A DNA stretch of 64,000 nucleotides, taken from Candidatus Pacearchaeota archaeon (lineage in GTDB: Archaea; Nanobdellota; Nanobdellia; Pacearchaeales; GW2011-AR1). The stretch spans positions 81,877 to 145,876 of the forward strand of contig JAVYLW010000002.1 in NCBI GenBank assembly GCA_038740375.1. Reading direction: 5' to 3'. A model generated the notes under the pieces. It was not told the origin of the DNA, searched no databases, and worked only from the letters and a program-made list of their open reading frames with translations. A program made the translations under genes and the position numbers. Every line of letters starts with the position of its first letter. Position 1 is the first letter of the stretch. Shown here piece by piece: positions 50 through 46,332 of this stretch.

Positions 50-538
50 TTAAATTTTTTCATATTCAAGAACCCTTAAAGATTTTGGATAAATTAAAAT
101 CATTTTGTTTTCTTTTATGTTTCCAAAAACTTTATCATAAATAATTTCCTTTTCTTGTTCGTAATCGTAAAATATTATTTTATCATTCTCAACTCTATAA
201 TATCCTTCTTCAAATATTCCACCACCATTAAAAGAATAATATTTTCCATTTTCTTTAAACTCTATCGTAGAATTTTCTACATATTCAGATTTAACACTTT
301 TAATTTCTTCCATAACAACTCTCCATTTTCCCAAAACAGCTTCTTTAGAAATATTTCCAATAAATCTTTCGCTATTCATAATCCTGCTATTTGCTAAATC
401 TTCATCTAAAGTATAAGGATTTTCCCCAGATAATCTAGGAACACGTTTTGAAGAATTTATTTTAGAAAAATAAAAAAATATAAATAAAAATAATGCCATA
501 ATTATAATGATTAAAAAAAATTTAAATATATTTCTCAT
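50..538 (-). CDS. Small membrane-anchored protein with a lipocalin-like beta domain (hypothetical)
   Basis: 162-aa ORF. N-terminal hydrophobic helix (FFLIIIIMALFLFIFFYF), then a GKWRVV...TIEFKENGKYY...GYYRVENDKIIF pattern reminiscent of small lipocalin-like domains. Lies 60 nt downstream of the giant ORF on the same strand. Family call by eye only. Confidence 0.45.
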   Translation of the reverse strand: MRNIFKFFLIIIIMALFLFIFFYFSKINSSKRVPRLSGENPYTLDEDLANSRIMNSERFIGNISKEAVLGKWRVVMEEIKSVKSEYVENSTIEFKENGKYYSFNGGGIFEEGYYRVENDKIIFYDYEQEKEIIYDKVFGNIKENKMILIYPKSLRVLEYEKI

Positions 539-598
539 CTTCTATTTTTCCTTCCTTTATATCCTTATATTCTTAAATTTATATATTTATCTTAACAA

Positions 599-3500
599 TT
601 AAGATTTTTCTTTATTTTCAATAATTAGATTAGGAGAACCTTTTCTAACCCATGAGAGCCATTCTTTACTTAATTGATTTAAATCCATATCATAATATTT
701 TTTTAAAGCAGAATTATAATCGTTTGTGTTTAAAAATTCTTCCATAAAATCGAATAATCTTTTTTTTCCATTACAAGGTTCTTTTATTTCTCCTAATTGA
801 TACAAATAATCTACAATACTATATCCCTGTGCATATAAAGGAAGAATGTCTGAAGGATAATCATACATCTCAAAAAGACGGGAAACAGTAATTCCTCTAT
901 TAGTTCTTAAAAAAGTATGAAGCATTAAATATAACTCGCTTTTTCTAGAAGTAGATTCAACATGTGATGAAACTCCTTCATTAAACCATATAGGAATTTG
1001 TTTTCCAAAATAAATTGCTGTAATAATATGTTGAACTTCGTGAGGTATAGTATCTTTAATTAATCCTTCATAACCTCCTTCAAGCGACATCTTAAACATA
1101 ATAGGGCCTTCTTTTTTATCTATTAAAAAACTTGTAGAACCACCGCTGCTTACTTTATTACCTAAATTATTTCTTAAAATAACTTCTACAGGACATAGTT
1201 TTTCAAATTTTGGATACTCTCTTCCAATAAGCTCAACAGCAAAAAAACATTTCCAATATTCCAAATGCCATGCAAATAAGCAAGCATTATCACTATTATC
1301 TTTTACAATAAAATTAGGTGTCTTATAAACATTAGTTCTCTCACATTCATTAACTTTATCTATATATTTTTTACAAATTTGAGCTGCATTCTCAAAACAA
1401 TCAACATTTTTTTTAGAAGAAACTTCTAAACATTCTCCACAAATTCCTTCTCCTGTATTTTTATCTTCATAACAACAACCATCAAATAATAAATCCTTTG
1501 AATTTTTTAAGTGACAATCTGGAAGACTATCTTTTAAGTCCTTACATTCTTGAACATTTTTAAGTATATAATCTCTAATAAAAATTTCAAGTTCATTTAA
1601 ATTAGTAGGATTTGATATTTTATTTCCAAATTTATCAACAACTAATACTGTAGATGAATAACCTGAGATTTTATTAAGAAGCATATTATCATAATAATAA
1701 TTAATTAAAGGTTGATTTAAAGGATTTTCTTGATTTTTTATATTTATATTAAATAGTAGAACATTGTAAGTATTTGCAATTTTTACTAATCTACTGTATA
1801 CTGGATTTACATTTTGATAAAAATGTAAAATAGCTATACATGAACGATAATTCTTTTCAGGAAATTTTTGAAGGTTATATTTAATAGTTTCTTCCATAAA
1901 TTTTTTACCTTTTTCTAAATTATCTTCATTAGAAGAAGTTACTTCATTTACGTCAAGATAATTACTAAAACCTAAATTCTGTTTACACCATTTCTCTCCA
2001 AATGTCTCGATCGCAAAATCTTTTAATTTATCATCTATAATACTGTTCAATTTATTAAGAGCATCTTCTCTTGGATTTTTACTTCCTAATCTTCTTAATT
2101 GAGCTTCTTCTGCATCAATAGCTCTTTTCAAAGCAAAAACAAGATAGCTTCTGAATATTGAACCACTTTCGCTGTTCCAATAATTGCAATCATAGGTTTT
2201 AATTGCTTTTGCAAGAGCAAGGGAATAAACCACAAAATCACAAAGACGCAGAGATATAACCTCAGATTTTAGACTAATACTATTTTCTAAATTACTAACA
2301 TAAATAGCTCCGTTTGTATATGCATTTAACTCATCAAGAATAAAAAAAGGATCATCATACCAATTATTAAAGAATCCTACCTTTTCTAAACCTCCTCTAG
2401 TAAACGAATAAGTAATTAAATTTGGTTTAATATAAACGTCATAAGAACTTGAACGTGAAGCTGAAATCTTCATTTTATCTGGAATAAACTCGTCAACATT
2501 CTTTACATTTAAATTAGAAGGTTTATTAATCAAAACAAATTTTCCACCAAAAAGATAAAAAGCACTAACTTTTTTATTACCTCTACTGAATTGATTTCTC
2601 AGTTTAGAATTAATTGCATGAGTAGTTTCATGAACAGTACTCCTCTCATCTGAATATTTATAACCTAAATTTACTTCATAATTTTCTTTATCTTGAAACG
2701 TTGCTAAATAATTTTTATAATAATATCTAACATCTTCAATTTCAGTTAAAAGTTTATTAGGATCCTGCCCAAAAGATGATATTTGAAAAGATTTAACAGA
2801 ATCTCTCGATACTGGAATGCACTTTTTATTATCTGTTAGAGAGTTTTGTTGAGGAATAACTGAAATCACTGAATCTTTTTTATTTTCGCTGTCACTACTA
2901 ATATCTGAATTAGGAATTTTTGAATTCTGAATTTCAAGAAGGTAACTTTTTTTATAAACACAAATTCCTCCAGTATCAAAAGAGTGTGGTAATGTTAAAC
3001 ATTCGTTACATTCATCACATTTACCACAGTCTACTTCTTCAGCATCTTGAGAAGAACTAAATTTCCATTTTCCACATAAATTATAATCAGTTTTTTTAAT
3101 AACATCCAATCTATGAAGAGTTCTTAAAGTTTCTTTTTTAAAATTATCATCACAATATTTTTTGGAAGATTCTATTTTTTCAGAACAGATGGATGCAGGA
3201 TTAGTTCTTGTATCAACAGAACCTGGAGGCATAGGAGAACACTGCTCTAAAGAAATTTTTTTAGAGCATTTCTCTCCTTTATCGTTAAGACATCTTGCAT
3301 CTCCGTTATTATCTTTTTTACAACTACAAGGAGGATTATAATTATTAAAACAGTCATCAATCTCTTCTTTATATATAGATTTACATTCTTTAGAGATAGC
3401 ATCACAAATTTCAACTATCTTTAAAACTTTAGATCCATCTTCTGAACAATAATTTCCTTTATTATTTTGTTCTTCTAAATACTGATTAGTCTTACTAGTA

Positions 3501-5863
3501 TCAGGCTCAACAGGAACAAGTTTACCTAGAGGAATAGGAGATTGATTAGGACTAGGATTAAGTGGTTCAACAGGAACAAGTTTACCTAGAGGAATAGGAG
3601 ATTGATTAGGACTAGGATTAAGTGGTTCAACAGGAACAAGTTTACCTAGAGGAATAGGAGATTGATTAGGACTAGGATTAAGCGGTTCAACAGGTTTAGT
3701 AGTTTCTTTTTTTTCAACACATCTTGAATCTGAATTAGCTTGATTAATCGCAGATTTTAACATTTGTTCTAATATAGCATAAGTAGTTGCTCCAACAACT
3801 TTATTTATATACCACTTCCGGCTTCCTTGCGGAATATCAAGCGGTAATCTAGTCTTAACATCTTGAACAATTGAAATAAAAGTCGGAACTGCACTCACTC
3901 CCCATTGATTTACAAAATTCTTATCAACGTCAAAATTAAATTTTACAACTTTATACCCTTTTTGAGCAAGCTCATCAACAATAGGTGTCATTTTCTTACA
4001 AGGTCCGCACCAATCAGCAGAAAAATATAAGAGAACACCTCTACAAATCGACTGTTGATCATTAGATAAAGGATTAACTTGAGCAAGTTCTGTTGATTCT
4101 TCATCAAATTCACTTATACTTTTTCCATAAGGCATATTAATAAAATTATCTTCATCTCTAAATTCAAAAACACTAAAAAATCTTTTAATAAACTCTTTTA
4201 TTCTTTCAAAGAGACTATAATTTAATTTATCTGAATCACTTTTATCTTCAGAAACAGGAGTTTCAATAATTTCATAAAAAGGCATATAACAAATCGGACA
4301 TTCTCGAATATTATATAAAGTTAGAATCTCTTGAAATTTTATATAAAATTGTCTTGGAACACATTTCCCTGTTTTTCCATTACTTTCATTTATAATAAGA
4401 CCATTTTCACTTAAACAAATTTCCTCACCATCGCACTCACAAAAAATTTCTTCATCTTTTCCATCTTTATCCTTGCAATCAGTTTTATAATTACCGCATA
4501 ATGCCTTATCATTTTCTCTTATGTTATTACAATTCTTTTTATAACAAATAGTATTTTCAGAGTCTACAGTAGTAAACTTTCTAACACAAGAACTATAATC
4601 AAATTTACATTCTTTCGTACATTTTAATATTCCGTTAATCAGATTAAATGAAGAACAACTTTTACCATCTAAATCATTTCCATCACATTCCTCATTTTCT
4701 TCTTTAATATTATTTCCACATACAGAATAACAATCAATATCATAAATGTCAGTTAAACCATCACAATCATTATCTTTATTATCATTACATGTTATCTCTC
4801 TAATCTTTTCATAGTCATTTCCATAATTACATTCACTCCATATTCCATTTAAACATTTCTGTAAAGCTCCTTTGCAAACACCTTTATCTAAAGGACAATT
4901 TATTTCTTCTTTTTCATTATAAGAACAAGGGCATCCTTCATCAATACTTCCATCACAATCATTATCAAACTCATCACATATTTCATCTAAACTAGGATTA
5001 ATATTCTCATCATAATCATTGCAATCAAAATTGTTATAAGAATATCCAAAAGGAAAAAATATTCCTGCACATATATTTGTTTCTTCTCCTGCTCCATAAC
5101 CATCGTTATCTAAATCTTCATACAGATTATACCATAAAGAAAATCTATTTTTATCATTATCATTACAATCTTTATTATTTAAAACATAACCTCTAGGTCT
5201 TTTACAGGCTTTGATATAATCTTCAGGATTTCCAAATCCATCACCATCATTATCTTTAAAATAAATAATTCCTTCAATACATTTCCCAAAACAACATAGT
5301 CCATCATAACAATCTGATTCATCAGGAACATTTGAATATATACATCCACTATTAGGATCACATGAATCATAAGTACAATCATTATAATCGTTACAATCAA
5401 TTAAAGTTCCAGAACATATTCCATTATTACACTTATCATCTTTGGTACAGAGATTATTATCGTCGCAGGTATTTGAATCTTCATCTATTAAACATATTCC
5501 ATTTCCATAGCCTGTTCCATAACCACTAGAATCAGAACATTTTAAACATTGTTTACAGTTATCTTTTCCGTTAACAACATAACAAGGTTCTCCAAATTCT
5601 TTATTTTCTTTAAAGTTAATGTAAATTTTTTCTTTTAATCCAAAAAATTCATAGAAAGCTCTAATTGGAGTAAGAAATAAATTATAAATTTCTCCATTAA
5701 CTTCTTTTTTTTCATCAAAAATTCCATCATCTTTTAAATAAAAAAATAAAATAAAAGATAAAAAAAGATAAGTGATAAAAAATAAAATTAAAACAAAAAA
5801 TATATAAAAATATAACTTTTTATTATTCATATATCTTAAGATTGTTTTATTCCTCTTTTTCAT
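599..5863 (-). CDS. Giant (1754 aa) membrane-anchored multidomain surface protein: Cys/Asp-rich repeats + thioredoxin domain + Pro-rich tandem linker + two HExxH (zincin-like) modules
   Basis: Uninterrupted 5265-nt ORF with an N-terminal TM helix (YFYIFFVLILFFITYLFLSFILFFYL). Residues ~90-520 contain MopE-type repeats (CNDYDENINPSLDEICDEFDNDCDGSIDEGC; CNDNKDNDCDGLTD) and a myxococcal-type Cys repeat (VCGNNIKEENEECDGNDLDGKSC). Thioredoxin motif LLYFSADWCGPCKKM...VPTF, with WCGPC at nt 3998-4012. Three copies of VEPLNPSPNQSPIPLGKLVP. VHETTHAI (HExxH, nt 2618-2632). C-terminal PHEVQHIITAIYFGKQIPIWFNEGVSSHVES (nt 1028-1042) matches the peptidase-MA-like pattern HExxH...WxxEG. Confidence 0.8.
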   Translation of the reverse strand: MKKRNKTILRYMNNKKLYFYIFFVLILFFITYLFLSFILFFYLKDDGIFDEKKEVNGEIYNLFLTPIRAFYEFFGLKEKIYINFKENKEFGEPCYVVNGKDNCKQCLKCSDSSGYGTGYGNGICLIDEDSNTCDDNNLCTKDDKCNNGICSGTLIDCNDYNDCTYDSCDPNSGCIYSNVPDESDCYDGLCCFGKCIEGIIYFKDNDGDGFGNPEDYIKACKRPRGYVLNNKDCNDNDKNRFSLWYNLYEDLDNDGYGAGEETNICAGIFFPFGYSYNNFDCNDYDENINPSLDEICDEFDNDCDGSIDEGCPCSYNEKEEINCPLDKGVCKGALQKCLNGIWSECNYGNDYEKIREITCNDNKDNDCDGLTDIYDIDCYSVCGNNIKEENEECDGNDLDGKSCSSFNLINGILKCTKECKFDYSSCVRKFTTVDSENTICYKKNCNNIRENDKALCGNYKTDCKDKDGKDEEIFCECDGEEICLSENGLIINESNGKTGKCVPRQFYIKFQEILTLYNIRECPICYMPFYEIIETPVSEDKSDSDKLNYSLFERIKEFIKRFFSVFEFRDEDNFINMPYGKSISEFDEESTELAQVNPLSNDQQSICRGVLLYFSADWCGPCKKMTPIVDELAQKGYKVVKFNFDVDKNFVNQWGVSAVPTFISIVQDVKTRLPLDIPQGSRKWYINKVVGATTYAILEQMLKSAINQANSDSRCVEKKETTKPVEPLNPSPNQSPIPLGKLVPVEPLNPSPNQSPIPLGKLVPVEPLNPSPNQSPIPLGKLVPVEPDTSKTNQYLEEQNNKGNYCSEDGSKVLKIVEICDAISKECKSIYKEEIDDCFNNYNPPCSCKKDNNGDARCLNDKGEKCSKKISLEQCSPMPPGSVDTRTNPASICSEKIESSKKYCDDNFKKETLRTLHRLDVIKKTDYNLCGKWKFSSSQDAEEVDCGKCDECNECLTLPHSFDTGGICVYKKSYLLEIQNSKIPNSDISSDSENKKDSVISVIPQQNSLTDNKKCIPVSRDSVKSFQISSFGQDPNKLLTEIEDVRYYYKNYLATFQDKENYEVNLGYKYSDERSTVHETTHAINSKLRNQFSRGNKKVSAFYLFGGKFVLINKPSNLNVKNVDEFIPDKMKISASRSSSYDVYIKPNLITYSFTRGGLEKVGFFNNWYDDPFFILDELNAYTNGAIYVSNLENSISLKSEVISLRLCDFVVYSLALAKAIKTYDCNYWNSESGSIFRSYLVFALKRAIDAEEAQLRRLGSKNPREDALNKLNSIIDDKLKDFAIETFGEKWCKQNLGFSNYLDVNEVTSSNEDNLEKGKKFMEETIKYNLQKFPEKNYRSCIAILHFYQNVNPVYSRLVKIANTYNVLLFNINIKNQENPLNQPLINYYYDNMLLNKISGYSSTVLVVDKFGNKISNPTNLNELEIFIRDYILKNVQECKDLKDSLPDCHLKNSKDLLFDGCCYEDKNTGEGICGECLEVSSKKNVDCFENAAQICKKYIDKVNECERTNVYKTPNFIVKDNSDNACLFAWHLEYWKCFFAVELIGREYPKFEKLCPVEVILRNNLGNKVSSGGSTSFLIDKKEGPIMFKMSLEGGYEGLIKDTIPHEVQHIITAIYFGKQIPIWFNEGVSSHVESTSRKSELYLMLHTFLRTNRGITVSRLFEMYDYPSDILPLYAQGYSIVDYLYQLGEIKEPCNGKKRLFDFMEEFLNTNDYNSALKKYYDMDLNQLSKEWLSWVRKGSPNLIIENKEKS
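3505..3694 (-). repeat. Near-perfect 60-bp tandem repeat (about 3.2 copies) inside the giant ORF, encoding a 20-aa Pro-rich unit
   Basis: The unit caacaggaacaagtttacctagaggaataggagattgattaggactaggattaag[t/c]ggtt is visible directly in three consecutive sequence lines (3541, 3601, 3661). Only about 2 substitutions occur, at the array edges. Confidence 0.95.
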
Positions 5864-6124: not shown

Positions 6125-7264
6125 ATGAAAAAAGAGAAATCTCTTGAATTAAGTATAATTTTACCTTGTAGAAATGAAGAAAAAGCTCTTTCAAAGTGTT
6201 TAAGTTCTATTAAAGAAGTAATTGCTAAAAATAATATCAACGCAGAAATAATAGTTTCTGATTCATCAACTGATAGAAGCCCACAGATAGCAAAAAAGCA
6301 CGGAGTAATACTAGTTAAACATAATAAGATAGGATACGGAACAGCAATTCTAGAAGGACTTAAAGTAGCAAAAGGAAATTACATATTAATTTCAGATTCT
6401 GATGGAACTTATGACTTTAATGAAATTCCTAATTTTTTAAAATATCTAAGAGAAGGTTATGATTTTGTTATAGGAAATAGATTTGCTTATTCATTAGATA
6501 AAGACTCTATGCCATGGCTGCATAAATATATAGGCAATCCTTTATTATCAGGAATATTAAGATTTTTTTTTAGAACAAATATAAAAGATTCACATTGTGG
6601 AATGAGAGCTATATCAAAAGAAGCATTAAATAAATTAAACTTAAAAACAACAGGTATGGAATTTGCGTCTGAAATGGTTGTAAAGGTTGTTCAAAATAAA
6701 CTAAAAACAAAAGAAATTCCGATAAAATACTATCCAAGATTAGGAGAATCAAAATTAAATAGCTTCAAAGATGGATGGCGCCATCTAAAATTTATGTTAA
6801 TTTATAGTCCTTTATTTTTATTTTTCATTCCAGGACTGATATTTTTTTTAATAGGAATAGAAACAATGGCATGGCTTTATTTCAGCTCTCCATCAATACT
6901 AGGGATAAAGCTTTATTATCATCCTATGTTTATATCATCAATATTAACAATATTAGGATATCAGCTTATAATTTTTTCATTTTTTTCAAAAATATATTCA
7001 ATAATTCATTTAAATGAAAAAAATGAATTTTTTGAGAGAATAATTAAAAAAATAACATTAGAAAAATCAATCTTAATTGGAACAATAATTTTTATTTTAG
7101 GATTTTTTATATATTTATACATATTTATAAAATGGATAAAAAGTGGATTTGGTTCTTTAAATGAAATTAAAAATTCTATTGTTTCCTTGACTTTAATAAC
7201 ATTAGGAATTCAAACAATATTTTCTTCATTTATGATAAGTATATTATCAATTAAAGAAAAATAA
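6125..7264 (+). CDS. GT2-family glycosyltransferase with C-terminal multi-TM region
   Basis: LSIILPCRNEE...IIVSDSSTDRS...ILISDSDGTYD (GT-A fold with DxD). The C-terminal third has about 4 hydrophobic helices. Confidence 0.75.
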   Translation: MKKEKSLELSIILPCRNEEKALSKCLSSIKEVIAKNNINAEIIVSDSSTDRSPQIAKKHGVILVKHNKIGYGTAILEGLKVAKGNYILISDSDGTYDFNEIPNFLKYLREGYDFVIGNRFAYSLDKDSMPWLHKYIGNPLLSGILRFFFRTNIKDSHCGMRAISKEALNKLNLKTTGMEFASEMVVKVVQNKLKTKEIPIKYYPRLGESKLNSFKDGWRHLKFMLIYSPLFLFFIPGLIFFLIGIETMAWLYFSSPSILGIKLYYHPMFISSILTILGYQLIIFSFFSKIYSIIHLNEKNEFFERIIKKITLEKSILIGTIIFILGFFIYLYIFIKWIKSGFGSLNEIKNSIVSLTLITLGIQTIFSSFMISILSIKEK

Positions 7265-7265
7265 A

Positions 7266-8375
7266 ATGAAAATAGCAATTTTTCATGACTTTTTTGATTC
7301 AATAGGAGGAGGAGAAAAAGTAGCAATAACTCTTGCAAAAGGTTTAAATGCAGACATAATAACCTGCAATTTAAATAAAGAAACAATTTATAAATTAAAA
7401 TGTGAAAAAATTAGATTCTTAAATCTAGTAAATACGCTAAATATACCTCCAGTAAAACAAATACAAGCATCATTATGTTACTCAAAATGTAACTTTTCTA
7501 AAAAATATGATTTTTTTATTTTTTCAGGAAATTGGGCTCCATTTGCAGCAAAAAAACATAAACCAAATTTATATTACTGTCACACTCCTACAAGAGTTTT
7601 TTATGACTATTACAAAAATCAAATGAAACAGCTTAATCTTTATCAAAAACCTCTTTTTTATTTATATGCAAAAATGCATAAATTCTGGACAGAAAAAAAT
7701 TTAAAATACATTGAAAAATTTATAGCAAATAGTGCAAATGTAAAAAAAAGAATCAAAGAATATTTTAAAAAAGATTCTTTAATAATCTTTCCACCAATAG
7801 ATACAAATAAATATTCTTATAAAAAAAGTGAAAACTATTGGCTTTCAGTAAACAGATTATATCCTCATAAAAGAATAGAACTTCAAATTCAAGCATTTAA
7901 AAAATTACCTAAAGAAAAATTAATAATCGTAGGATGGATAGCAAAAGGAGAAGGATGTGAAAAATATTTAAAAAAAATTCTTAAAAATTTGCCAAAGAAT
8001 ATAGAAATAAAAGGAAAAATAGATGAAACAAATCTCTTAGAACTTTATTCTAAATGCAAAGGTCTTATAACCACTTCAAAAGATGAAGATTTTGGAATGA
8101 CTCCAATAGAAGCAATGGCTTCAGGAAAACCTGTGATAGCTCCAAATGAAGGAGGTTATAAAGAAACTATAATAAATGGAAAAACAGGAATATTAATTGA
8201 TAATATTAACGAAGACAAAATAATTGAAGCAATTAAAAGAATAAATCGAGAATTAAATGAAAATCCAAAAAAATACAAGGATAATTGCATTAAACAATCA
8301 AAAAAATTTGATTCAAAAATATTTTTAAAAAAAATAAAAAATGAGATATATAACAGAATAAATAAAGATATTTAA
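7266..8375 (+). CDS. GT4 (GT-B fold, group 1) glycosyltransferase
   Basis: C-terminal signature EDFGMTPIEAMASGKPVIAPNEGGYKETIINGKTGIL. Starts 2 nt after the preceding gene. Confidence 0.75.
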   Translation: MKIAIFHDFFDSIGGGEKVAITLAKGLNADIITCNLNKETIYKLKCEKIRFLNLVNTLNIPPVKQIQASLCYSKCNFSKKYDFFIFSGNWAPFAAKKHKPNLYYCHTPTRVFYDYYKNQMKQLNLYQKPLFYLYAKMHKFWTEKNLKYIEKFIANSANVKKRIKEYFKKDSLIIFPPIDTNKYSYKKSENYWLSVNRLYPHKRIELQIQAFKKLPKEKLIIVGWIAKGEGCEKYLKKILKNLPKNIEIKGKIDETNLLELYSKCKGLITTSKDEDFGMTPIEAMASGKPVIAPNEGGYKETIINGKTGILIDNINEDKIIEAIKRINRELNENPKKYKDNCIKQSKKFDSKIFLKKIKNEIYNRINKDI

Positions 8376-8397
8376 TATATAAATATTTTATAAAAAA

Positions 8398-9552
8398 ATG
8401 AAAATATCTTTTGCAACACCTTATTATATATCAGGAATGGGTATAGAAAATAGAATAACAGAATTAGCAAAGAATCTGCCGAAAGATATTGAAAAAAATA
8501 TTCTATGTCTAGACTATAAAAGAATGCCAAAAAGAGATATTGAACTAAAAAGAATGATTTTACCTTTTAGATTTTTTTCAGCCCATAATCTAACAAAATA
8601 TAATTTTATAAGCAAATATATAACAAAAAAATATTTTTCATTAATATCAAAATCTGATTTGATTGATTGTCAATATTTTCCAATGACCTTATTAAAAGCT
8701 CCAAAAAAAATAATTACATGGCATTCAGTCACGTTTCCTGAATATGCTTTAAATGAAAAAGAAGGAAGAAGATGGAATAAAGAATTCAAGGCAATGATAA
8801 AAGACATGCATAAAACTGATTTAATAGTGCCTGTTAGTAAGTGGGCAGAACAAGAAGTAAAAGAGCATATCCCAAATGCAAAAACAGAAGTAATTTATAA
8901 TGGAGTTGATTTAGACAAATTTAGATTTAAACCTCTTGAATTAAGAAAAAAAAATATACTTGTTGTAGGAAGGTTCACTCCTCATAAAGGATATGAAGAA
9001 GCTATATCAATATATAACGAAGTTATAAAAGAACTTAAAGATCCTGAAATAAATTTGATTATGGCAGGCAGAAATGACAACTTAGATTATTACAATAAAT
9101 TAAAAATTTTTTCGAAAAAATTAGTGGAAAAACAAAAAAATCAGGAAAAGGAAATTTTAAAAAATAAATCAGGAAAAATAAAAAAAAATAAAGAAAATAA
9201 AATAATTTTTTTTGATAATCTTACAGACACTCAAATTATGGCTATTTATCAAAATGCAGATATATTTGTAAGTTGTAGTCATTGGGAAGGATTTGGAATG
9301 CCTTTAATTGAAGCTCAATCTTGCGGACTACCTAGCTTTGCCTATAATATATGTTCACATCCAGAAGTAATAGCAAATAAAAATAATCTTGCTAATGAAA
9401 ATGATATTTGGGATATAGCTGAAAAAATAAAAATTTTATTAACTGATAAGAAAAAGTATAACTTAGAATCTATAAAAGCAAGAAAATTTGCTGAAAATTT
9501 TGATTGGAAGTTGATAACTCAAAAATATCTTTCAACAATTCAAAAGATATAA
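8398..9552 (+). CDS. GT4 (group 1) glycosyltransferase
   Basis: VGRFTPHKG...SHWEGFGMPLIEAQSCGLPSFAY (E-x7-E type motif). Carries a Lys-rich low-complexity insert (KNKSGKIKKNKENK). Confidence 0.7.
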   Translation: MKISFATPYYISGMGIENRITELAKNLPKDIEKNILCLDYKRMPKRDIELKRMILPFRFFSAHNLTKYNFISKYITKKYFSLISKSDLIDCQYFPMTLLKAPKKIITWHSVTFPEYALNEKEGRRWNKEFKAMIKDMHKTDLIVPVSKWAEQEVKEHIPNAKTEVIYNGVDLDKFRFKPLELRKKNILVVGRFTPHKGYEEAISIYNEVIKELKDPEINLIMAGRNDNLDYYNKLKIFSKKLVEKQKNQEKEILKNKSGKIKKNKENKIIFFDNLTDTQIMAIYQNADIFVSCSHWEGFGMPLIEAQSCGLPSFAYNICSHPEVIANKNNLANENDIWDIAEKIKILLTDKKKYNLESIKARKFAENFDWKLITQKYLSTIQKI

Positions 9553-17834: not shown

Positions 17835-18197
17835 AAAAATATGTCTATGAATTTAACGATTTTAAATGATTTCTAAAAATATAAACTTCTCATTTTAATT
17901 TAAAAAATAAAGTTAATAAATAATTTTTGATTCTTAAGAAATTTATTATCTTGATATTAATAATAAAATATCTTTTATTATAAATAGAGTAAGAATTAGA
18001 GTCGATTTTTATAATCATAAAATAAAAGGAGATTGAATTTCAAATTAGACAATTTTAAGATGTATATCTTTACCACCTGAAAAAGACAAACAAAAAAATC
18101 GACAAATTTATAAATCTAAAGCTCTGTGTATATATGTTTGTCTAAACTAAATCAAAATTTATTGATAATATCTTATCTAAAAAATATAAAAACAAAT

Positions 18198-20501
18198 ATG
18201 AAAAAAGAGAGCGATGAATCCGCAGAGGATTTATTAAATCCAAAAACATGTTTTTTTTCTAACTTCCCTCCAAAAGAGTGTGGAATAGCTACTTTTTGTA
18301 AGAATTTAGCAACTGCTATGGATAAAAGATTTAATCCAAAATTAAAATCAAAAGTAATAGCTATAAACGAAGAAGGTAGTATTTATAATTATTCTAATAA
18401 AGTTATACTTGAAGTAAATAAAAATGATATTGAAACATACATTGAAATAGCAAAAAAAGTAAATGAATCTGAAAATATAAAAATTGTCTGTGTTCAGCAT
18501 GAATTTGGAATTTTCGGCGGTGAATACGGAAATTATATCATTCCATTTTTAGAAACTTTAAAAAAACCTGTTGTAGTAACATTTCATTCAGTTTTACCAA
18601 ATCCTGACGACAAAAGGAAAAGAGTTGTATGTGCTATTGCAAAAAGAGCATCAGCAATAATTGTTATGGCAAAAGCAGGAGTTGAAATACTAAATAGAGA
18701 TTATGGTATTGAAAAAAATAAAATATTTGTTGTTCATCACGGAATTCCAAATGTTCCTTTTTGTTCTGATAATACTTTAATGAAAAAAAAACTCAAATTA
18801 GATGGAAAAATTGTATTATCAACTTTTGGGTTATTATCAAGAGGCAAAGGTATTGAGTATGTAATAAAAGCACTTCCTCCTTTAGTTAAAAAATATCCTA
18901 ATCTACTTTACATAATAATTGGAGAAACTCATCCTGCAATAAGAAAAATAGAAGGTGAAGCTTATAGAAATGAATTAATAAACTTAGTAAAAAAATTAAA
19001 ATTACAAAATCATGTCAAATTCTATAACAAATATTTATCTTATTCAGAAATAATAGAATATGTTATAGCATCTGATATTTATTTAGCAACTAATTTAGAA
19101 AAAAATCAAATAACAAGTGGAACTCTAATAGAAGCAATGGGTTATGGAGGAAAAGCAATAGTTTCTACAGCAAGTATTTATGCACAAGAGGTATTAGCTG
19201 ATGGAAGAGGAATAACTGTTGAAATAAGAAACGAAAATGCTTATACTGAAGCTATAGATAAAATTTTAAGTAATCCTGAATTAAAAAAGGAAATGGAGAG
19301 ACTTGCATATGCTTACTCAAGAAAAGCTATTTGGTCAAATGTTGCTTACCAATATCTCAATATTTTTAACAAAATAGTTAAATTAAGAGAAGAAACAATT
19401 GAAAAATTCCCTAAGATTAAATTGAATCACATCAGTAATTTAACAGATGATTATGGAATAATACAGTTTTCAAAACACTCAACTCCTGATAAATCTTCAG
19501 GTTATACATTAGACGATAACTCAAGAGCATTAATTTTCTCAATACTTCATAATAAACTTTTTGATAAAGAAAAAACTGGAGAAATAAGCAAAAATTTAGC
19601 AAAGATTTATTTAAATTTTATTGAAAGATCTCAAGAAGAAGACGGAAATTTTAAAAATAATCATAAAAATGAAGAAGAAATATTAAATTCACATAGTGAA
19701 GATTCTTTTGGAAGGGCGATTTGGTCTTTAGGATTTACAATAAATAAATCTATTGATCCTTTATTAGTAGATAAAGCAAAAAAAATATTTGAAAAATCAT
19801 TTAATTATATAGATAAAATTAACTCTCCAAGAGCAAAAGCATTTACGATATTAGGACTATATTATCATTATAAAAGTTCTGAAAATGAAAAAATTTTATC
19901 CAAATTAAAAAAAATTGCAAATGATTTATTAGAACATTATAAAAAAGAATCTTCAGAAGATTGGCAATGGTTTGAATCATATTTAACTTATTCAAATGCA
20001 AAACTGCCTGAAGCAATGTTTCTAGCATATGATGCTTCTGGAGAAATAGAATATTTAAATGTAGCTAAAAAAACTCTGGATTTCTTAACAAATTTAATGT
20101 TTATAGAAGGAGAATTCTCTCCTATAGGTCAAAATGGATGGTATAAAAGAAATGGAGAAAGAGCATTCTTTGATCAACAACCATTGGACGTTAGTTCAAT
20201 GGTAACTGCATATTTAACAGCTTGTAACATAACAAAAAATAAAGAATATTACAAAAATGCAGTTCTTGCTTTTAATTGGTTTTTGGGTAAAAATCATCTC
20301 AAGCAGATGATATATGATGAAACAACAGGTGGATGTTATGATGGATTAGGTAAACATTCTGTTAATCTAAATCAAGGTGCTGAATCAACAATTTCATATC
20401 TAATTGCAAGAATATTTTTAGAGGAACATAAAAGGAACAATAAAAAAGATGTATCTCACAAGAATAATAATCTTAAAAAATCTGAAATTCTAGCAGTATA
20501 A
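18198..20501 (+). CDS. GT4 glycosyltransferase fused to a C-terminal (alpha/alpha)-toroid-like domain
   Basis: The track start at 18126 is a GTG; the ATG at 18198 (MKKESDE) is more plausible. The N-terminal ~400 aa are GT-B like (FPPKECGIATFCKNL...FGLLSRGKG...TSGTLIEAMGYGGKAIVS). The C-terminal ~370 aa have helical-repeat character (DDNSRALI...FGRAIWSLG...WFESYLTYSNAKLPEA). Confidence 0.6.
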   Translation: MKKESDESAEDLLNPKTCFFSNFPPKECGIATFCKNLATAMDKRFNPKLKSKVIAINEEGSIYNYSNKVILEVNKNDIETYIEIAKKVNESENIKIVCVQHEFGIFGGEYGNYIIPFLETLKKPVVVTFHSVLPNPDDKRKRVVCAIAKRASAIIVMAKAGVEILNRDYGIEKNKIFVVHHGIPNVPFCSDNTLMKKKLKLDGKIVLSTFGLLSRGKGIEYVIKALPPLVKKYPNLLYIIIGETHPAIRKIEGEAYRNELINLVKKLKLQNHVKFYNKYLSYSEIIEYVIASDIYLATNLEKNQITSGTLIEAMGYGGKAIVSTASIYAQEVLADGRGITVEIRNENAYTEAIDKILSNPELKKEMERLAYAYSRKAIWSNVAYQYLNIFNKIVKLREETIEKFPKIKLNHISNLTDDYGIIQFSKHSTPDKSSGYTLDDNSRALIFSILHNKLFDKEKTGEISKNLAKIYLNFIERSQEEDGNFKNNHKNEEEILNSHSEDSFGRAIWSLGFTINKSIDPLLVDKAKKIFEKSFNYIDKINSPRAKAFTILGLYYHYKSSENEKILSKLKKIANDLLEHYKKESSEDWQWFESYLTYSNAKLPEAMFLAYDASGEIEYLNVAKKTLDFLTNLMFIEGEFSPIGQNGWYKRNGERAFFDQQPLDVSSMVTAYLTACNITKNKEYYKNAVLAFNWFLGKNHLKQMIYDETTGGCYDGLGKHSVNLNQGAESTISYLIARIFLEEHKRNNKKDVSHKNNNLKKSEILAV

Positions 20502-24912: not shown

Positions 24913-25890
24913 ATGAAGATTATGCAAAAAATTCTTCCAAAATCCAAATTAAAAGAATTTATAGAATCTTTAATGAATAGCTATGAAATTATAGCTCCTG
25001 TAAACAAAGATATAACAAAATTTGATATTATTAAAAATCCAAATGAAATATATTTAAAACAAATAACAAAAGTTCCATTAAAAAAATTTTTTATCCCTGA
25101 AAATGAGATTATTTTAGAATATGAAAATGAAATAATAAAAGAAAAAAAAGATAAAACAAAAGAAAGAGTTATTTTTGGTTTAAGAAAATGTGACATTAAT
25201 GCTTTAGAAATTTTAGATAAAGTAATGACTGATAAGTTTTACTTAAATAAAAGAAAAAAATCTATATTAATAGGTTATTTTTGTGAAAATCCTGACAAAT
25301 ATTGCTTCTGCAACTCAATGCAATTAAGTGATAAGGGCTTTGATTTATTTTTTTATCCAAAAGATAACTTTTATTTTATATCAATAGGCACTGAAAAAGG
25401 AAAAGAATTAGTTAAAAATTTGAAAACAGCAAAAAAGGAAATTAAATTAGAATATTATAATAGAAAATACTTAAAAGAAACAGACTTAAATAAACATTAT
25501 AAAGATAAAATATGGGAAGAAAACGCTAATCAATGTCTTTCATGTTCAGCATGTACGATTTACTGTCCTACATGTAATTGTTTTGACATAAATGACATTC
25601 TTAGTTTAAATTTAAAAGATGGAAAAAGAATAAGGCAGGAAACATCTTGTCATTTAAAATCATTTACAGAAGTTGCAGGAGAAAAATATTTCAGAGAAAG
25701 TAGACTAGCAAGATTTAAGCATTTTGTATATCATAAGATAGTTTATTATAAAAAAAAGAAAGGTAGATACATGTGCGTAGGTTGTGGTAGATGTTTAAGA
25801 GTCTGTCCAACAAAAATAGATTGGGTTAAAACAATAAATTTATTAGAATCAATAAAACATCCAATAGAAGCAAAAGAAAAAATCATATAA
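24913..25890 (+). CDS. hydB: Sulfhydrogenase beta subunit-like (HydB/AsrA-like 4Fe-4S protein)
   Basis: CLSCSACTIYCPTCNC and CVGCGRCLRVCP clusters. First gene in a B-G-(X)-D-A order. Confidence 0.7.
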   Translation: MKIMQKILPKSKLKEFIESLMNSYEIIAPVNKDITKFDIIKNPNEIYLKQITKVPLKKFFIPENEIILEYENEIIKEKKDKTKERVIFGLRKCDINALEILDKVMTDKFYLNKRKKSILIGYFCENPDKYCFCNSMQLSDKGFDLFFYPKDNFYFISIGTEKGKELVKNLKTAKKEIKLEYYNRKYLKETDLNKHYKDKIWEENANQCLSCSACTIYCPTCNCFDINDILSLNLKDGKRIRQETSCHLKSFTEVAGEKYFRESRLARFKHFVYHKIVYYKKKKGRYMCVGCGRCLRVCPTKIDWVKTINLLESIKHPIEAKEKII

Positions 25891-25924
25891 ATAAAATTAA
25901 AATCTTAAAAATTTGTAAAATAAA

Positions 25925-26752
25925 ATGAATCAATATATTCCAAAACCATATATCATAGAAGAAATCGTTGATTTTACAGAAGATGTAAAGTTATTCAAAA
26001 TTAAATCAAACCTAAATCCAAAACCAGGACAATTTATTGAAGTATCTATCCCAGGTTATGGAGAATGTCCCTTAGCATCTTGCTCTAATGACGAAAACTA
26101 TATTCATATGTTAACAAGAAATGTAGGAAACTTAACAACAATGATGTTTAAATTAAAAAAAGGTGATAAAATATTCATAAGAGGGCCATATGGAAAAGGT
26201 TTTCCTATTAAAAATTTAAAAAATAAAAATATCCTTTTAATTGCAGGAGGAACAGGAATAGCTCCAGTAACATCCTTGTTACATTATATAGAGAAACATA
26301 GAAATGATTTCAAAGAAGTCTACGCTTATTTTGGTTTTAGAAATGAAAGATATATTTTATTAAAAGACAAAATAAAAGACTGGCAAAAAAAATTTAAGAT
26401 TGTGATATGTTTAGATAAAAAAGAAAATAACGAGTGTGAATTAAAATGTGAAATTGGATTTATACACGATGTTATGGATAAAATTAAACCCCTTATTGAT
26501 AATACAATCGCAGTTTTATGCGGTCCTGAAATAATGATGGATTGTGTAACTGAAAAACTTAAAAAACAAGGAATGAAAGAAAATAGAATATTTTGGAGTT
26601 TAGAAAGAAGAATGGAATGTGGGTTTGGAAACTGTAATAGATGTCTTATACAGGATTTATATGTGTGCAAAGATGGTCCGGTATTTAGATATGATATTAT
26701 CAAAACTAGAATAGATAATGAAGAATATAGCAATAAAATTAAAACAAATTAA
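25925..26752 (+). CDS. hydG: Sulfhydrogenase gamma subunit-like (FAD/NAD(P)-binding, C-terminal 2Fe-2S; HydG/AsrB-like)
   Basis: FNR-like fold (PGQFIEVSIPG...LIAGGTGIAP) and the C-terminal CGFGNCNRCL...C cluster. Confidence 0.75.
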   Translation: MNQYIPKPYIIEEIVDFTEDVKLFKIKSNLNPKPGQFIEVSIPGYGECPLASCSNDENYIHMLTRNVGNLTTMMFKLKKGDKIFIRGPYGKGFPIKNLKNKNILLIAGGTGIAPVTSLLHYIEKHRNDFKEVYAYFGFRNERYILLKDKIKDWQKKFKIVICLDKKENNECELKCEIGFIHDVMDKIKPLIDNTIAVLCGPEIMMDCVTEKLKKQGMKENRIFWSLERRMECGFGNCNRCLIQDLYVCKDGPVFRYDIIKTRIDNEEYSNKIKTN

Positions 26753-26753
26753 A

Positions 26754-27494
26754 ATGAAAATTTCAAATAAAGAAATAAATAAAGATATAAGAAAATTTAT
26801 AAAAATAGCTGAGATAAGAAAACAAGATATTATTTTAAATATACCCTTCGGAGATATAGCTGTAGCAAAAAGATTATCAAAAAAAAAGAAAATCAGTCTT
26901 CACATATTAGAAGAAGAAAAATTTCAAGTAAAAAATGCAAAAAAATTCATTAAAAAAGCAGAATTTTACATATCTTCCTCAGTATTAAAAACTCCATTTA
27001 AGAATGATTTTTTTGATAAAATATTTATAAGAAATGGTATTTACCAAATATTAAAAAATAAACAATTAATTTTATTCAAAGAAATTTACAGAATTCTAAA
27101 AACAAAAGGAAAATTCATTAACTGGACTATAGCTTTAAATAACAAAAATAAAAAATTTTTCAACAAATTATCGAGCAAAAAAAATGAAATATCAGGATTT
27201 TCGAAAAATATTTTTCAAAAAAAATATTTTGCAAGTAAAGAAGAAATCATATCATGGTTAAAAAAAGCAGGTTTTAGAAAAATAAAAATTTATGATTTAA
27301 AAATTTTTTATTTATTATCAACAGACATTTGGTTTAAAATTGATTTTAAAAAAGATTTAATTAAATCAAAAGAGTGGAACAATTATATTAAATCTTTAAT
27401 ATTCAAATATGAAATATCTGATATTCAAATAAAATATATAAAAAATAATTTTCAATTAAAAATACCTGCATTAATATCTATTGCTGAAAAATAA
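26754..27494 (+). CDS. Class-I methyltransferase-fold-like protein with degenerate SAM motif I, embedded in the hydrogenase operon
   Basis: The track start at 26718 overlaps hydG. The ATG at 26754 sits 1 nt after the hydG stop. DIILNIPFGDIAV occupies the usual LDxGxGxG position. TPFKNDFFDKIFIRNG...LFKEIYRILKTKGKFI resembles the Methyltransf_11 motifs (lPf.d.sFD.v...; Ei.RvLKpgG). Confidence 0.45.
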   Translation: MKISNKEINKDIRKFIKIAEIRKQDIILNIPFGDIAVAKRLSKKKKISLHILEEEKFQVKNAKKFIKKAEFYISSSVLKTPFKNDFFDKIFIRNGIYQILKNKQLILFKEIYRILKTKGKFINWTIALNNKNKKFFNKLSSKKNEISGFSKNIFQKKYFASKEEIISWLKKAGFRKIKIYDLKIFYLLSTDIWFKIDFKKDLIKSKEWNNYIKSLIFKYEISDIQIKYIKNNFQLKIPALISIAEK

Positions 27495-27495
27495 A

Positions 27496-28263
27496 ATGGA
27501 AATTAATCAAAAAAAACCAACTGTAGGATTTTATGGAATATCTGGATGTGCAGGATGCCTTTTAACAGTTTTATTTGAAAATTCTTTTAAAGAATTAACA
27601 GAGCTTGTAAATATAAAAGCATTTCCGCTAATAAAAGAAGATAGCTACAAAGGTTATTTTGATATAGTTTTTATTGAAGGAACAGTATGTTTTGACGAAG
27701 ATATTTTAATAATAAACAAGTTAAGAAAAAGAGCTAAAGTTATTGTGGCTTTGGGATCATGCAGCCACGTAGGAGGAGTTCCCTCAATAAAAAATTTTAA
27801 AGATAAAGAAAAAATAATGAAATTTGTTTATCCTAGAATAAATCATTTAAAAGAAGAAAATCCTACACCTATTGAAAATCACATAAAAGTAGATTATTAT
27901 ATTCCTCAATGCCCTCCTAACAAATCAGAAATAATAGAGTTTATTAAGATTTTTTTAACAGAAAGAAAATGGAAAAATTATAATGAGCCTGTTTGTTTTG
28001 AATGCAGAAAAAAAGCAAATCCCTGCGTATTAGAAAAAGGGGAAATTTGTTTAGGTCCCATAACAAACGGAGGTTGTGGAGCACTATGCCCTTCAAACAA
28101 AACAGAGTGTTATGGATGCAGAGGTCCTACTGATGATGCAAATATAAGGTCATTTAAAGAAATGTTAAAAAATATGGGCTATAAAGAAGAAGATATATTT
28201 GATAAAATGGAAACTTTTGCAGGATTACAATTCAAAAATAAAGAAGAAAAAGATGAAATATAA
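27496..28263 (+). CDS. hydD: [NiFe] hydrogenase small (delta) subunit, group 3-like
   Basis: VGFYGISGCAGC at the N-terminus, plus GSCSHVGG and distal Cys clusters (CFECRK...C; GGCGALCPS...CYGCRGP). The ATG at 27496 lies 1 nt after the preceding stop. Confidence 0.8.
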   Translation: MEINQKKPTVGFYGISGCAGCLLTVLFENSFKELTELVNIKAFPLIKEDSYKGYFDIVFIEGTVCFDEDILIINKLRKRAKVIVALGSCSHVGGVPSIKNFKDKEKIMKFVYPRINHLKEENPTPIENHIKVDYYIPQCPPNKSEIIEFIKIFLTERKWKNYNEPVCFECRKKANPCVLEKGEICLGPITNGGCGALCPSNKTECYGCRGPTDDANIRSFKEMLKNMGYKEEDIFDKMETFAGLQFKNKEEKDEI

Positions 28264-28281
28264 ATTATCTTTTTTTATAAC

Positions 28282-43807: not shown

Positions 43808-44014
43808 CTTTATGAATTTTCACAAAAATTTTATTTTCTTAAAATTTAAAGGAAAAAAAGATTTATAAACCTTTATAAGAATTTCTCATTTTTTAAAGAT
43901 TAATTCTAAAATTTAATAATTTTTTTTATAAATCTTTTTTTAATTTTTACAGATAACTTTTTAATAAAGATGATTGGGAGTGACATAGTTTATTAAAACA
44001 ATTATTTTTCTATT

Positions 44015-45124: not shown

Positions 45125-45282
45125 TATTCACCAATTTTACATAATTACAAAATAATTTTAGATTATAAACTTAACTTTTATAAAAATATATAAAGTTATA
45201 AGTATAAAATAAGTTTTAGCTATCTAATGTATCTTCTATTAAAATAAAAAGATTAGATTAAATAATTAATATAAAAATTTAT

Positions 45283-46245: not shown

Positions 46246-46332
46246 GAAATATTTTAAAATTTTTTTCTCTTTTTTAATCTAAATAAAAGTATAGTTAATT
46301 TATAAATTTTACAATACAACCAAATTTTTATT

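Follow-up and report, generated by a model that had tools for sequence, protein, structure and literature searches.

A giant membrane-anchored mosaic protein gene of likely DPANN origin, with thioredoxin, orphan HExxH and predicted gluzincin modules and a small downstream partner gene

Near one end of the 64,000-nucleotide stretch of DNA analysed here (contig JAVYLW010000002.1 of GenBank assembly GCA_038740375.1; the whole stretch is called the window in what follows, and all coordinates refer to it) there lies a long minus-strand gene for a protein of 1754 amino acids (aa), followed directly by a small gene for what will be called its partner. The long gene is one genuine, intact gene, and the giant protein that it encodes carries, from its N-terminus, a membrane anchor, a stalk of Cys-rich repeats, a thioredoxin (Trx) domain, a module named here after its HETTH motif, and a C-terminal head that sequence and structure prediction assign to the gluzincin metallopeptidases. 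The two genes and their parts are as follows, in the order of the giant protein (P and L numbers denote family proteins and loci found in the searches; AF2, AlphaFold2; pLDDT, predicted local distance difference test score).

599–5863, minus strand: the whole giant gene including its stop codon, 1754 aa from an ATG start (open reading frame (ORF) list and uniform GC content at third codon positions, GC3)
5732–5815, minus strand: signal-anchor or transmembrane (TM) segment, aa 17–44, the sole TM-like segment in a hydropathy scan
4289–5584, minus strand: Cys/Asp-rich repeat stalk, aa 94–525, with 48 Cys and 88 Asp plus Glu (PF11617 match)
4937–5026, minus strand: MopE-type repeat within the stalk, aa 280–309
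3728–4081, minus strand: thioredoxin domain, aa 595–712 (PF00085), with WCGPC at aa ~618 (3998–4012)
3507–3694, minus strand: Pro-rich spacer, aa ~723–786, the 20-aa unit VPVEPLNPSPNQSPIPLGKL repeated 3.1 times (Tandem Repeats Finder, TRF; 60-nt unit, 99% DNA identity)
2807–3493, minus strand: second Cys-rich region, aa 791–1019, 18 Cys, with no relatives detected
1964–2788, minus strand: HETTH module, aa ~1026–1300 (relatives P0155, P0249, P0124 and 51 more)
2618–2632, minus strand: HExxH of the HETTH module, within the invariant columns H1078-E-x-T-H1082..N1085...R1089
2312–2335, minus strand: D1177-E1178...Y1182.N1184, also invariant columns of the HETTH module
1547–1963, minus strand: segment of 139 aa between the two HExxH modules, aa 1301–1439, AF2 pLDDT mostly 35–62
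1331–1546, minus strand: Cys cluster, aa 1440–1511, 9 Cys, preceding the peptidase and common to the closest relatives P0121, P0122 and L089
623–1330, minus strand: predicted gluzincin module, aa 1512–1747 (PF13485, alignment, AF2, Foldseek)
1028–1042, minus strand: H1608-E-V-Q-H1612, the HExxH of the gluzincin, then WFNEGVSSHVE
956–982, minus strand: N-E1629-G...E1636, predicted third-ligand Glu and a second Glu
833–835, minus strand: Y1677, the Tyr of PLYAQG, which follows Y1669-P
539–598, minus strand: intergenic gap of 60 nt (direct sequence reading)
50–538, minus strand: the partner gene, for a TM-anchored, weakly lipocalin-like protein of 162 aa, directly 3' of the giant gene

The ORF at 599–5863 is the longest within the first 9 kb of the window, which has a GC content of 24%, and GC3 is low in every module (0.03 to 0.20; background 0.124 ± 0.015) and uniform enough that no part appears foreign or chimeric. 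In a Pfam scan three families pass their gathering thresholds (GA), namely Thioredoxin, Peptidase_MA_2 and Cu-binding_MopE, and these, together with alignment, AF2 and Foldseek, bear out what an earlier note on this DNA had proposed, that a single gene encodes a membrane-anchored, Cys-repeat protein with a thioredoxin and a C-terminal peptidase of clan MA; a check by nucleotide coordinate also found the positions given there for WCGPC, HETTH and HEVQH...WFNEGVSSHVE to be exact. Of the 87 Cys in the protein all lie past the TM segment, while there are just 11 His, four of them in the two HExxH motifs; by composition 0.005 such motifs would be expected, at least two were seen in 0 of 20,000 shuffles, and with so few His in 1754 aa the retention of both by chance is implausible. 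The archaeal origin that the earlier note had supposed is corroborated by a translation factor in the window, aIF-2/5B, which passes the cutoff of the archaeal equivalog (TIGR00491: 571 bits against 554.75), and composition and the nearest relatives of the HETTH module make an origin in the DPANN group (Woesearchaeota/Nanoarchaeota-like) likely.

As a whole the giant protein forms a singleton cluster found on one contig. A homolog search with the full length returned mostly MopE-repeat proteins, thousands of which match the stalk region alone, and the best non-self match covers at most 14% of the query. A word-index search with the C-terminal 754 aa gave no matches, and an exhaustive HMMER search was needed: with aa 1001–1754 as query against representative clusters this matched 1861 clusters at an expectation value (E) of 1e-3 or below and 979 at 1e-10 or below. 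Nearly all of the 150 matches listed cover aa ~1512–1747, and among them the whole of the C-terminal query is spanned only by the giant protein itself (P0001).

The N-terminal TM anchor is borne out as a single hydrophobic segment (aa ~17–44) with seven Lys or Arg residues ahead of it, and from the positive-inside rule and the 87 Cys beyond the anchor we infer an N-in, C-out (type-II) topology. As regards the stalk, the earlier note had described both MopE-type and myxococcal-type (TIGR02232-type) repeats. The former are upheld by two stretches matching Cu-binding_MopE (PF11617) at 32.1 to 34.3 bits against a GA of 27; the latter are not, since NCBIfam gave no match at E of 10 or below on aa 101–533 except acid_disulf_rpt (weak, E 1e-3), and a likeness to the myxococcal-type repeat is seen at motif level only, at aa 382–428. 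Dicty_CTDC also matches the stalk, below threshold.

The thioredoxin domain is real as judged by sequence, and the WCGPC assignment holds: PF00085 gives 45.6 bits for the entire protein and 51.2 for the segment (GA 23.5), and both the CxxC and the cis-Pro motif are kept, the latter as AVPT (aa ~658–661), which aligns with IPT of E. coli TrxA in an alignment that also included P0121 and P0286. The domain has a 20-aa insertion ahead of its last strand, the position of the buried Asp26 of TrxA is occupied by Tyr, and the TrxA equivalog TIGR01068 fails (47.2 bits against a cutoff of 96.8), the N-terminal β1/α1 being unmatched. Behind it lies the Pro-rich linker that had been described as triplicated, as TRF confirms. 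Its three copies have one mismatch among them, which points to a very recent expansion and a spacer that is likely to be variable in length; here alone, too, an assembly might get the number of copies wrong. The second Cys-rich region (aa 791–1019) has no match in Pfam, NCBIfam or the PHROGs, and no phmmer match among 200 family proteins or locus ORFs. For aa 1301–1439, likewise, no homologs were found in Pfam or by comparison with family and locus ORFs. A CxxC-less, redox-inactive thioredoxin-like domain at aa ~1335–1435, which the alternating hydrophobic pattern of strands and helices might suggest, was set aside for want of Pfam support and for low AF2 confidence.

On sequence and model together, the C-terminal head is a gluzincin with a full predicted set of catalytic residues and belongs to a compact, uncharacterised family. 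Peptidase_MA_2 (PF13485) scores 39.9 bits on the whole protein and 43.1 on the segment against a GA of 32.4. Across 19 diverse members the invariant features are P-HExxH, an E-G 16 residues further on, a second Glu, YP, and the Tyr of PLYAQG, and the giant protein retains every invariant residue (H1608, E1609, H1612, E1629, E1636 and Y1677). The AF2 model of the module (pLDDT 91.8; predicted template modelling score, pTM, 0.89) finds as its top Foldseek matches the catalytic domains of Vibrio M9 collagenases (probability 1.0, query-based TM-score (TMq) 0.59), with a long series of M1 aminopeptidases and other gluzincins behind them; over the M9 and M1 matches the probability reaches up to 1.0 and TMq is 0.45 to 0.59, at an identity of 12 to 14%. 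Membership of M9 or M1 itself was considered and rejected, given that identity, a Peptidase_M9 hidden Markov model (HMM) match at E 0.13, and the lack of a GxMEN motif. A profile search against the PDB gave a weak match to a "neutral metalloprotease" (7bb8, E 0.007). An N-terminal hydrophobic segment in 125 of 142 members predicts export for the family, and in most members the module begins directly behind a signal peptide (median start, residue 24). Many of the relatives are high-GC proteins. One such, P0179 (874 aa), from a high-GC bacterium, joins an ECF-type (extracytoplasmic function) sigma-70 factor (regions 2 and 4) through a hydrophobic stretch to two tandem gluzincin copies, the second of which has lost its HExxH (it reads NAVTR), and this suggests a sigma/anti-sigma-like signalling use of the fold.

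For the HETTH module the position is rather different, and it is here that the earlier proposal of two zincin modules divides: it stands for the C-terminal module, through PF13485 above its GA, AF2 and Foldseek, but not for HETTH. Among the matches listed, the exhaustive search found HETTH relatives in P0155 (from a Nanoarchaeota metagenome-assembled genome, MAG), P0249 and P0124, and a profile search added 51 more, mostly stand-alone proteins of 210–350 aa without a Pfam domain; an N-terminal hydrophobic segment is present in 39 of the 49 members beginning with Met. The family core reads H-E-x-T-H-x-x-N-x-x-x-R, then P, P and Y, then D-E-x-x-x-Y-x-N; HExTH and DE are invariant across 23 sequences, and the giant protein keeps all the invariant residues. 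AF2 models the core (aa ~1069–1309) with pLDDT mostly 84–98 and places both HExxH and DE within helices. Searches of Pfam, NCBIfam, the PHROGs and PDB profiles returned no match for the module; the best that Foldseek gave against the PDB and BFVD was E 0.1 to 0.2, for helical-repeat proteins; in an hhalign comparison with the gluzincin only the motif aligned, at a probability of 2%; and past the bare motif there is no relation to a third, "HEITH", head of Woesearchaeota carriers. An invariant HExxH in a predicted helix argues for a functional metal or catalytic site, and the module is probably an orphan family possessing such a site; with no detectable link of family or fold, "zincin" is for this module a reasonable guess.

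The partner gene follows the giant gene across a gap that contains no oligo-T run of 5 or more, which makes transcriptional read-through plausible, and that has a purine-rich AGGAAGG ~12 nt before the ATG. Its product consists of an N-terminal TM segment and a domain of ~100 aa. The link between the two genes put forward in the earlier note draws strong support from synteny that is conserved in AT-rich relatives: in an independent MAG the gene next after P0122 encodes a homolog (BLASTP E 2e-8), and 80 of the 340 metagenome stretches carrying gluzincins were examined as loci, among which the only two AT-rich ones (L089 and L091, GC 0.30 to 0.31) both have a homolog on the same strand after the gluzincin ORF, at 34 nt (E 4e-13) and 4 nt (E 5e-18) respectively. 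Over 95 gluzincin loci the partner is present in four of the five with GC below 0.40 and in none of the other 90 (hypergeometric p ~2e-6, a statistic that phylogeny confounds). P0121 is followed, 37 nt downstream, by a 190-aa gene. The assignment of the partner as lipocalin-like is suggestive: three of four members of its family match Lipocalin_4 (E ~3e-4, below GA), and the partner profile touches a small Bacteroides protein, BT_0846 (2m4l), at E 0.014. In the MAG that holds P0122 and its partner, a 905-aa protein encoded ~2.6 kb downstream (L006, 4048–6765) has MopE-like repeats that match aa 155–308 of the giant protein (BLASTP E 1e-12), and between the two are two HEPN/nucleotidyltransferase pairs.

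The earlier note had not recognised the architecture, and as a whole order it was indeed found in no other protein, but its parts do recur two at a time: thioredoxin, HETTH and gluzincin occur as pairwise fusions or neighbours in uncultivated phage contigs, in Planctomycetota/Myxococcota and in DPANN MAGs. The closest relative of the C-terminal head, P0121 (489 aa), is built of a signal peptide, a thioredoxin (CGPC), a Pro-rich linker, a Cys cluster and a gluzincin, a small-scale version of the plan of the giant protein, with which it aligns from aa 1464 on. Other fusions of thioredoxin and gluzincin are P0143, P0153, P0178, P0233, P0255 (with Trypsin_2 in addition) and one in L062; thioredoxin is fused to HETTH in P0286; P0124 has HETTH and then gluzincin, in the same order as the giant protein; and separate thioredoxin genes adjoin HETTH genes in L014, L037/38 and L056. 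The giant protein is the sole one seen with all three heads, and the sole one with them on a MopE stalk. In two high-GC loci the gene directly 3' of the gluzincin (L154, 2308–3495; L160, 8417–9847) encodes 396–477 aa with a weakly thioredoxin-like C-terminus (E ~1e-6), and may be a split version of the thioredoxin–gluzincin pairing.

HETTH occurs on 53 IMG/VR viral contigs, some of them of 340 to 533 kb (L008, 459 kb; L011, 436 kb; L025, 340 kb; L040, 533 kb), and the HETTH proteins of such uncultivated large or huge phages are small and bear a signal peptide. It is also found on phage-like MAG contigs with DNA polymerase A, a DUF5906 primase, RNA ligase, RlaP, a D12 methyltransferase and a PHROG exonuclease. 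Among GTDB species representatives it is present in one of the Nanoarchaeota, two Woesearchaeota, several Polyangiaceae/Myxococcales, one of the Muiribacteriota and two Planctomycetota, the closest relatives there being from Woesearchaeota/Nanoarchaeota MAGs at 35% identity. The gluzincin was found on 13 IMG/VR contigs as well as on the 340 metagenome stretches. Both modules are absent from the 50,697 deposited phage genomes searched, so that the phage link rests on the IMG/VR contigs and on gene content. A 424-aa gene adjoining a phage HETTH gene (L003) was considered as a possible gluzincin and proved to be a phage exonuclease. The HETTH genes of two contigs unrelated to each other, phage-like or from Planctomycetia, have CsrA-family genes (L001, 6451–6630; L005, 2942–3172) a few kb upstream.

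A further setting for both modules is provided by DPANN cassettes, in which a conserved gene for a TM protein of ~250 aa precedes carrier proteins of 640–780 aa, as in the Woesearchaeota loci L007 (2010–9995) and L076 (451–6907) and in L087 (653–3771), and which also hold a conserved protein of ~205 aa. A paralog of 635 aa in L007 shares 75% identity with P0249 over ~365 N-terminal residues, the similarity ending before the HETTH head of P0249. P0200 and P0141 have the gluzincin as their C-terminal head, and the N-terminal region of P0200 is homologous to that of P0155, which has a HETTH head (E 1e-7). Shared N-terminal carriers with differing heads imply that, in DPANN, HETTH and gluzincin are alternative C-terminal heads of a common display scaffold. 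Other carriers end in a tail containing CPNC (L007_635) or in HEITH/HEIGH tails, which are unrelated to the two modules, are unrecognised by Pfam, and are defined at motif level only. Judged on sequence, the cassette looks like a head-swapping surface-protein system. The stalk of the giant protein differs from the DPANN carrier scaffold, and the window lacks all the cassette components, namely the ~250-aa partner, the N-terminal region of the carriers and the ~205-aa protein.

Taking these observations together, we consider it somewhat better than an even chance that the giant protein degrades proteins as a redox-assisted machine tethered to the surface, together with a cognate partner that may be an inhibitor. 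The disulfide-rich, acidic MopE-type stalk would hold three enzyme-like heads off the membrane: a CGPC thioredoxin, the orphan HExxH domain, and a disulfide-braced gluzincin endopeptidase. These would be drawn from a shared toolkit whose members elsewhere are secreted separately, fused in pairs, or borne as alternative C-terminal heads by DPANN carriers. The thioredoxin might act on disulfides, by reduction or shuffling, in a substrate stabilised by them or, as an activation switch, in the Cys brace of the protease itself, whereupon the metallopeptidase head or heads would cleave the extracellular substrate. The small anchored, lipocalin-like partner would most likely serve as an inhibitor or immunity factor shielding the surface of the producer, or else as an accessory. 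The target could be envelope proteins of a host or neighbour, or the proteolysis could be nutritional. A role in cell–cell interaction or host-envelope remodelling, and a reduced, host-dependent way of life, are likewise conjectures of the earlier note. Topology, enzymatic activities, the coupling of thioredoxin to protease, the role of the partner and the target are all things that we infer. A wider form of the proposal, which we put forward tentatively and think unlikely to hold in full, is that the thioredoxin, the orphan HExTH…DE…Y.N domain, the gluzincin and the partner of the archaeal branch make up an extracellular "reduce-and-cleave" toolkit not described before, shared horizontally among DPANN, large uncultivated phages, Planctomycetota and Myxococcota. 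In it the orphan would represent a metallohydrolase fold so far unseen, the partner would belong to a novel class of cognate inhibitor or immunity protein, and the giant protein would serve as a device for breaching the host envelope.

All this said, a number of points tell against such a machine. Both HExxH families are biochemically uncharacterised. The HETTH module has no zincin fold or homology that could be detected by sequence or by model, and its predicted strands come after the HExxH helix and not before it, so that it could be something other than a peptidase. For a CGPC thioredoxin working outside the cell an electron donor is required; none came up, no search having been aimed at one. 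Thioredoxin is fused in only ~4% of gluzincin representatives and 2% of HETTH relatives, a rate low enough to imply that any coupling to the protease is optional. As for the partner, Lipocalin_4 (PF13648) falls below threshold (21.7 bits against a GA of 22.4), an AT-rich relative (L087/P0141) lacks the partner gene, and the positive loci form one AT-rich subfamily, which makes their co-conservation lineage-specific and not a set of independent events. The DPANN assignment, finally, goes by composition and nearest relatives.

Several other explanations have to be set beside it. A nutritional exoprotease, feeding an auxotrophic archaeon with the thioredoxin helping to unfold disulfide-rich prey proteins and with no specific host interaction, would fit a gluzincin family composed mostly of ordinary secreted proteins of free-living Planctomycetota-like bacteria, and fusions with trypsin-like proteases (P0255, L089) do resemble degradative cocktails; it leaves unexplained, however, both the co-conserved, membrane-anchored partner of the AT-rich subfamily and the presence of both modules in uncultivated phage contigs, for which feeding is irrelevant, and we regard it as unlikely, if a serious contender. 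Somewhat less probable again is a toxin–immunity system, in which Cys cluster, gluzincin and partner would be the conserved unit, an effector against surface proteins of competitors or hosts, and the N-terminal regions interchangeable means of delivery or display. Variable carriers with differing heads are a hallmark of polymorphic toxin loci. The C-terminal unit and its partner do stand behind differing N-termini (MopE stalk, thioredoxin and HETTH in the window; trypsin-like in L089; short in P0122), just as DPANN carriers 75% identical in their N-terminal parts bear different heads within one locus, but there are no recognised trafficking domains (RHS, PT-type pre-toxin), the window holds no arrays of orphan heads or immunity genes, the giant protein has two tandem heads in place of one terminal toxin, and the high-GC majority of the family has no partner (0 of 90).

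The thioredoxin might, alternatively, have no role towards substrates and be a built-in folding catalyst, oxidising or isomerising the ~43 potential disulfides of its own protein in an organism without a Dsb system. The motif CGPC is the classical reducing one and not the CPHC or CGHC of oxidases and isomerases, and thioredoxin is also fused or adjacent to HETTH-family proteins with few Cys, whereas the 87 extracellular Cys, the place of the thioredoxin immediately before Cys-rich regions, in P0121 as in the giant protein, and the sharing by the closest gluzincin relatives of the Cys cluster and of subfamily-specific Cys in the catalytic domain would all suit such a function; we judge it improbable to much the same degree as a toxin. 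That the protein is an adhesin whose HExxH modules are degenerate, non-catalytic binding scaffolds we think very improbable, in spite of the annotation of giant Cys-repeat proteins usually as adhesins (going by the names in the full-length search) and of a HETTH module with no recognisable hydrolase fold, for all invariant residues of both families are kept (both HExxH motifs, the gluzincin Glu and Tyr, and DE..Y.N of HETTH), and this in a protein so poor in His that chance would hardly have preserved them. Least probable of all, to the point of being scarcely credible, is an artefact of assembly or gene calling that has fused separate genes: a near-perfect 60-nt tandem repeat in mid-ORF, of a kind prone to mis-assembly, and the singleton status of the protein on one contig would be in keeping with it, but a collapse of the repeat would alter spacer length only, a continuous frame of 5.3 kb stands in a genome of 24% GC where stop codons are frequent, GC3 is native throughout, and independent assemblies hold as single ORFs both Trx–linker–Cys cluster–gluzincin (P0121) and HETTH–gluzincin (P0124), module fusions that count as evidence against such an artefact.

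The remainder of the window offers some further observations. Divergent from the giant gene is a run of glycosyltransferase-like genes (6125–9552, from a reading of the translations by eye); an ORF at 18126–20501 has Pfam GT1/GT4 matches, and there is an EpsG-like polymerase at 57337–59241. The glycosyltransferase-like genes and the polymerase suggest a surface-glycan locus around the giant gene. Glycolytic enzymes and many glycosyltransferases are encoded in the window, and so is a group-3 (sulf)hydrogenase-like cluster (24913–29568), with a ShyB/HydB-like beta subunit (24913–25890), an NiFe large subunit (28282–29568) and three ORFs between them. Two GH130-type beta-mannoside phosphorylases (42614–43807 and 46333–47397) adjoin a bifunctional phosphoglucose/phosphomannose isomerase (45283–46245), and 42614–47397 seems to be a mannoside salvage route, somewhat remarkable in a genome that is presumed small.

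Few molecules are known to act at the interface between DPANN archaea and the cells to which they live attached; the giant gene is a concrete, testable candidate for one, offering a confidently modelled metalloprotease together with a redox domain and a partner gene that is conserved. Beyond this single gene, the analysis defines a large uncharacterised family of compact secreted gluzincins, an orphan HExxH family without a fold match, present both in MAGs of DPANN and on uncultivated phage contigs as long as ~530 kb, and a protease–partner gene pair for which inhibition is directly testable. If the coupling of thioredoxin to protease proved functional, it would amount to a simple prokaryotic route for degrading disulfide-stabilised surface proteins.

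What remains is to place the giant protein among known systems; a literature search found nothing relevant on Peptidase_MA_2, on DPANN with MopE, or on DPANN with thioredoxin plus metalloprotease. With the M9 and M1 families of clan MA(E) its C-terminal head shares the HExxH, a Glu ligand in N/D-E-G, a downstream Tyr and a mixed β-sheet plus helical domain, but the spacing from HExxH to Glu is 16 residues against 18 in M1 (WLNEG), the GxMEN exopeptidase motif of M1 is replaced by an invariant strand GGxT, the domain is a compact stand-alone one of ~235 aa, and the AT-rich subfamily adds the Cys cluster and internal Cys. ResA, TlpA and DsbE/CcmG are similar to the thioredoxin part in being N-terminally anchored, extracytoplasmic Trx folds with a reducing-type CxxC, and NCBIfam gives weak matches to DsbE (E 2e-5) and ResA (E 5e-4), all far below cutoffs; the thioredoxin of the giant protein, by contrast, is internal to a protein of 1754 aa and closest to the classical TrxA type (WCGPC), and no cytochrome-maturation context is seen around its gene. 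For the gene pair, an analogy is provided by the serralysin AprA and its inhibitor AprI/Inh (calycin superfamily), an operon of a secreted metalloprotease with an adjacent gene for a small β-barrel inhibitor. The order there, a zinc endopeptidase gene and then a small exported calycin/lipocalin-like gene, is the same, while the partner described here has no sequence relationship to Inh, is TM-anchored, and may or may not inhibit.

Among giant surface proteins, the MopE-related ones of Bacteroidota and Myxococcota (PF11617) likewise use acidic Cys-rich repeats as a long extracellular stalk, but they match only 5 to 14% of the query, through the repeats, and are often sorted by the type IX secretion system or by MYXO-CTERM, neither of which the giant protein has; none of those listed carries the set of thioredoxin, HETTH and gluzincin. 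The SPEARE proteins of Nanohaloarchaeota, most of them anchored C-terminally, combine a serine protease, laminin-G and an intracellular (type III) restriction-endonuclease domain (PMC6642349). The likeness lies in a very large, anchored, mostly extracytoplasmic DPANN protein with protease and adhesion-type modules and a proposed interaction with a host (PMC6642349), whereas Pfam and NCBIfam scans find none of the SPEARE domains in the giant protein, and the sequences are unrelated. MopE repeats, thioredoxin, clan MA gluzincins and large mosaic DPANN surface proteins (SPEARE, PMC6642349) are thus of known kinds. New are the combination as a whole, the orphan HExxH family, the use of shared DPANN carriers for alternative heads, and the pairing of gluzincin and partner genes.

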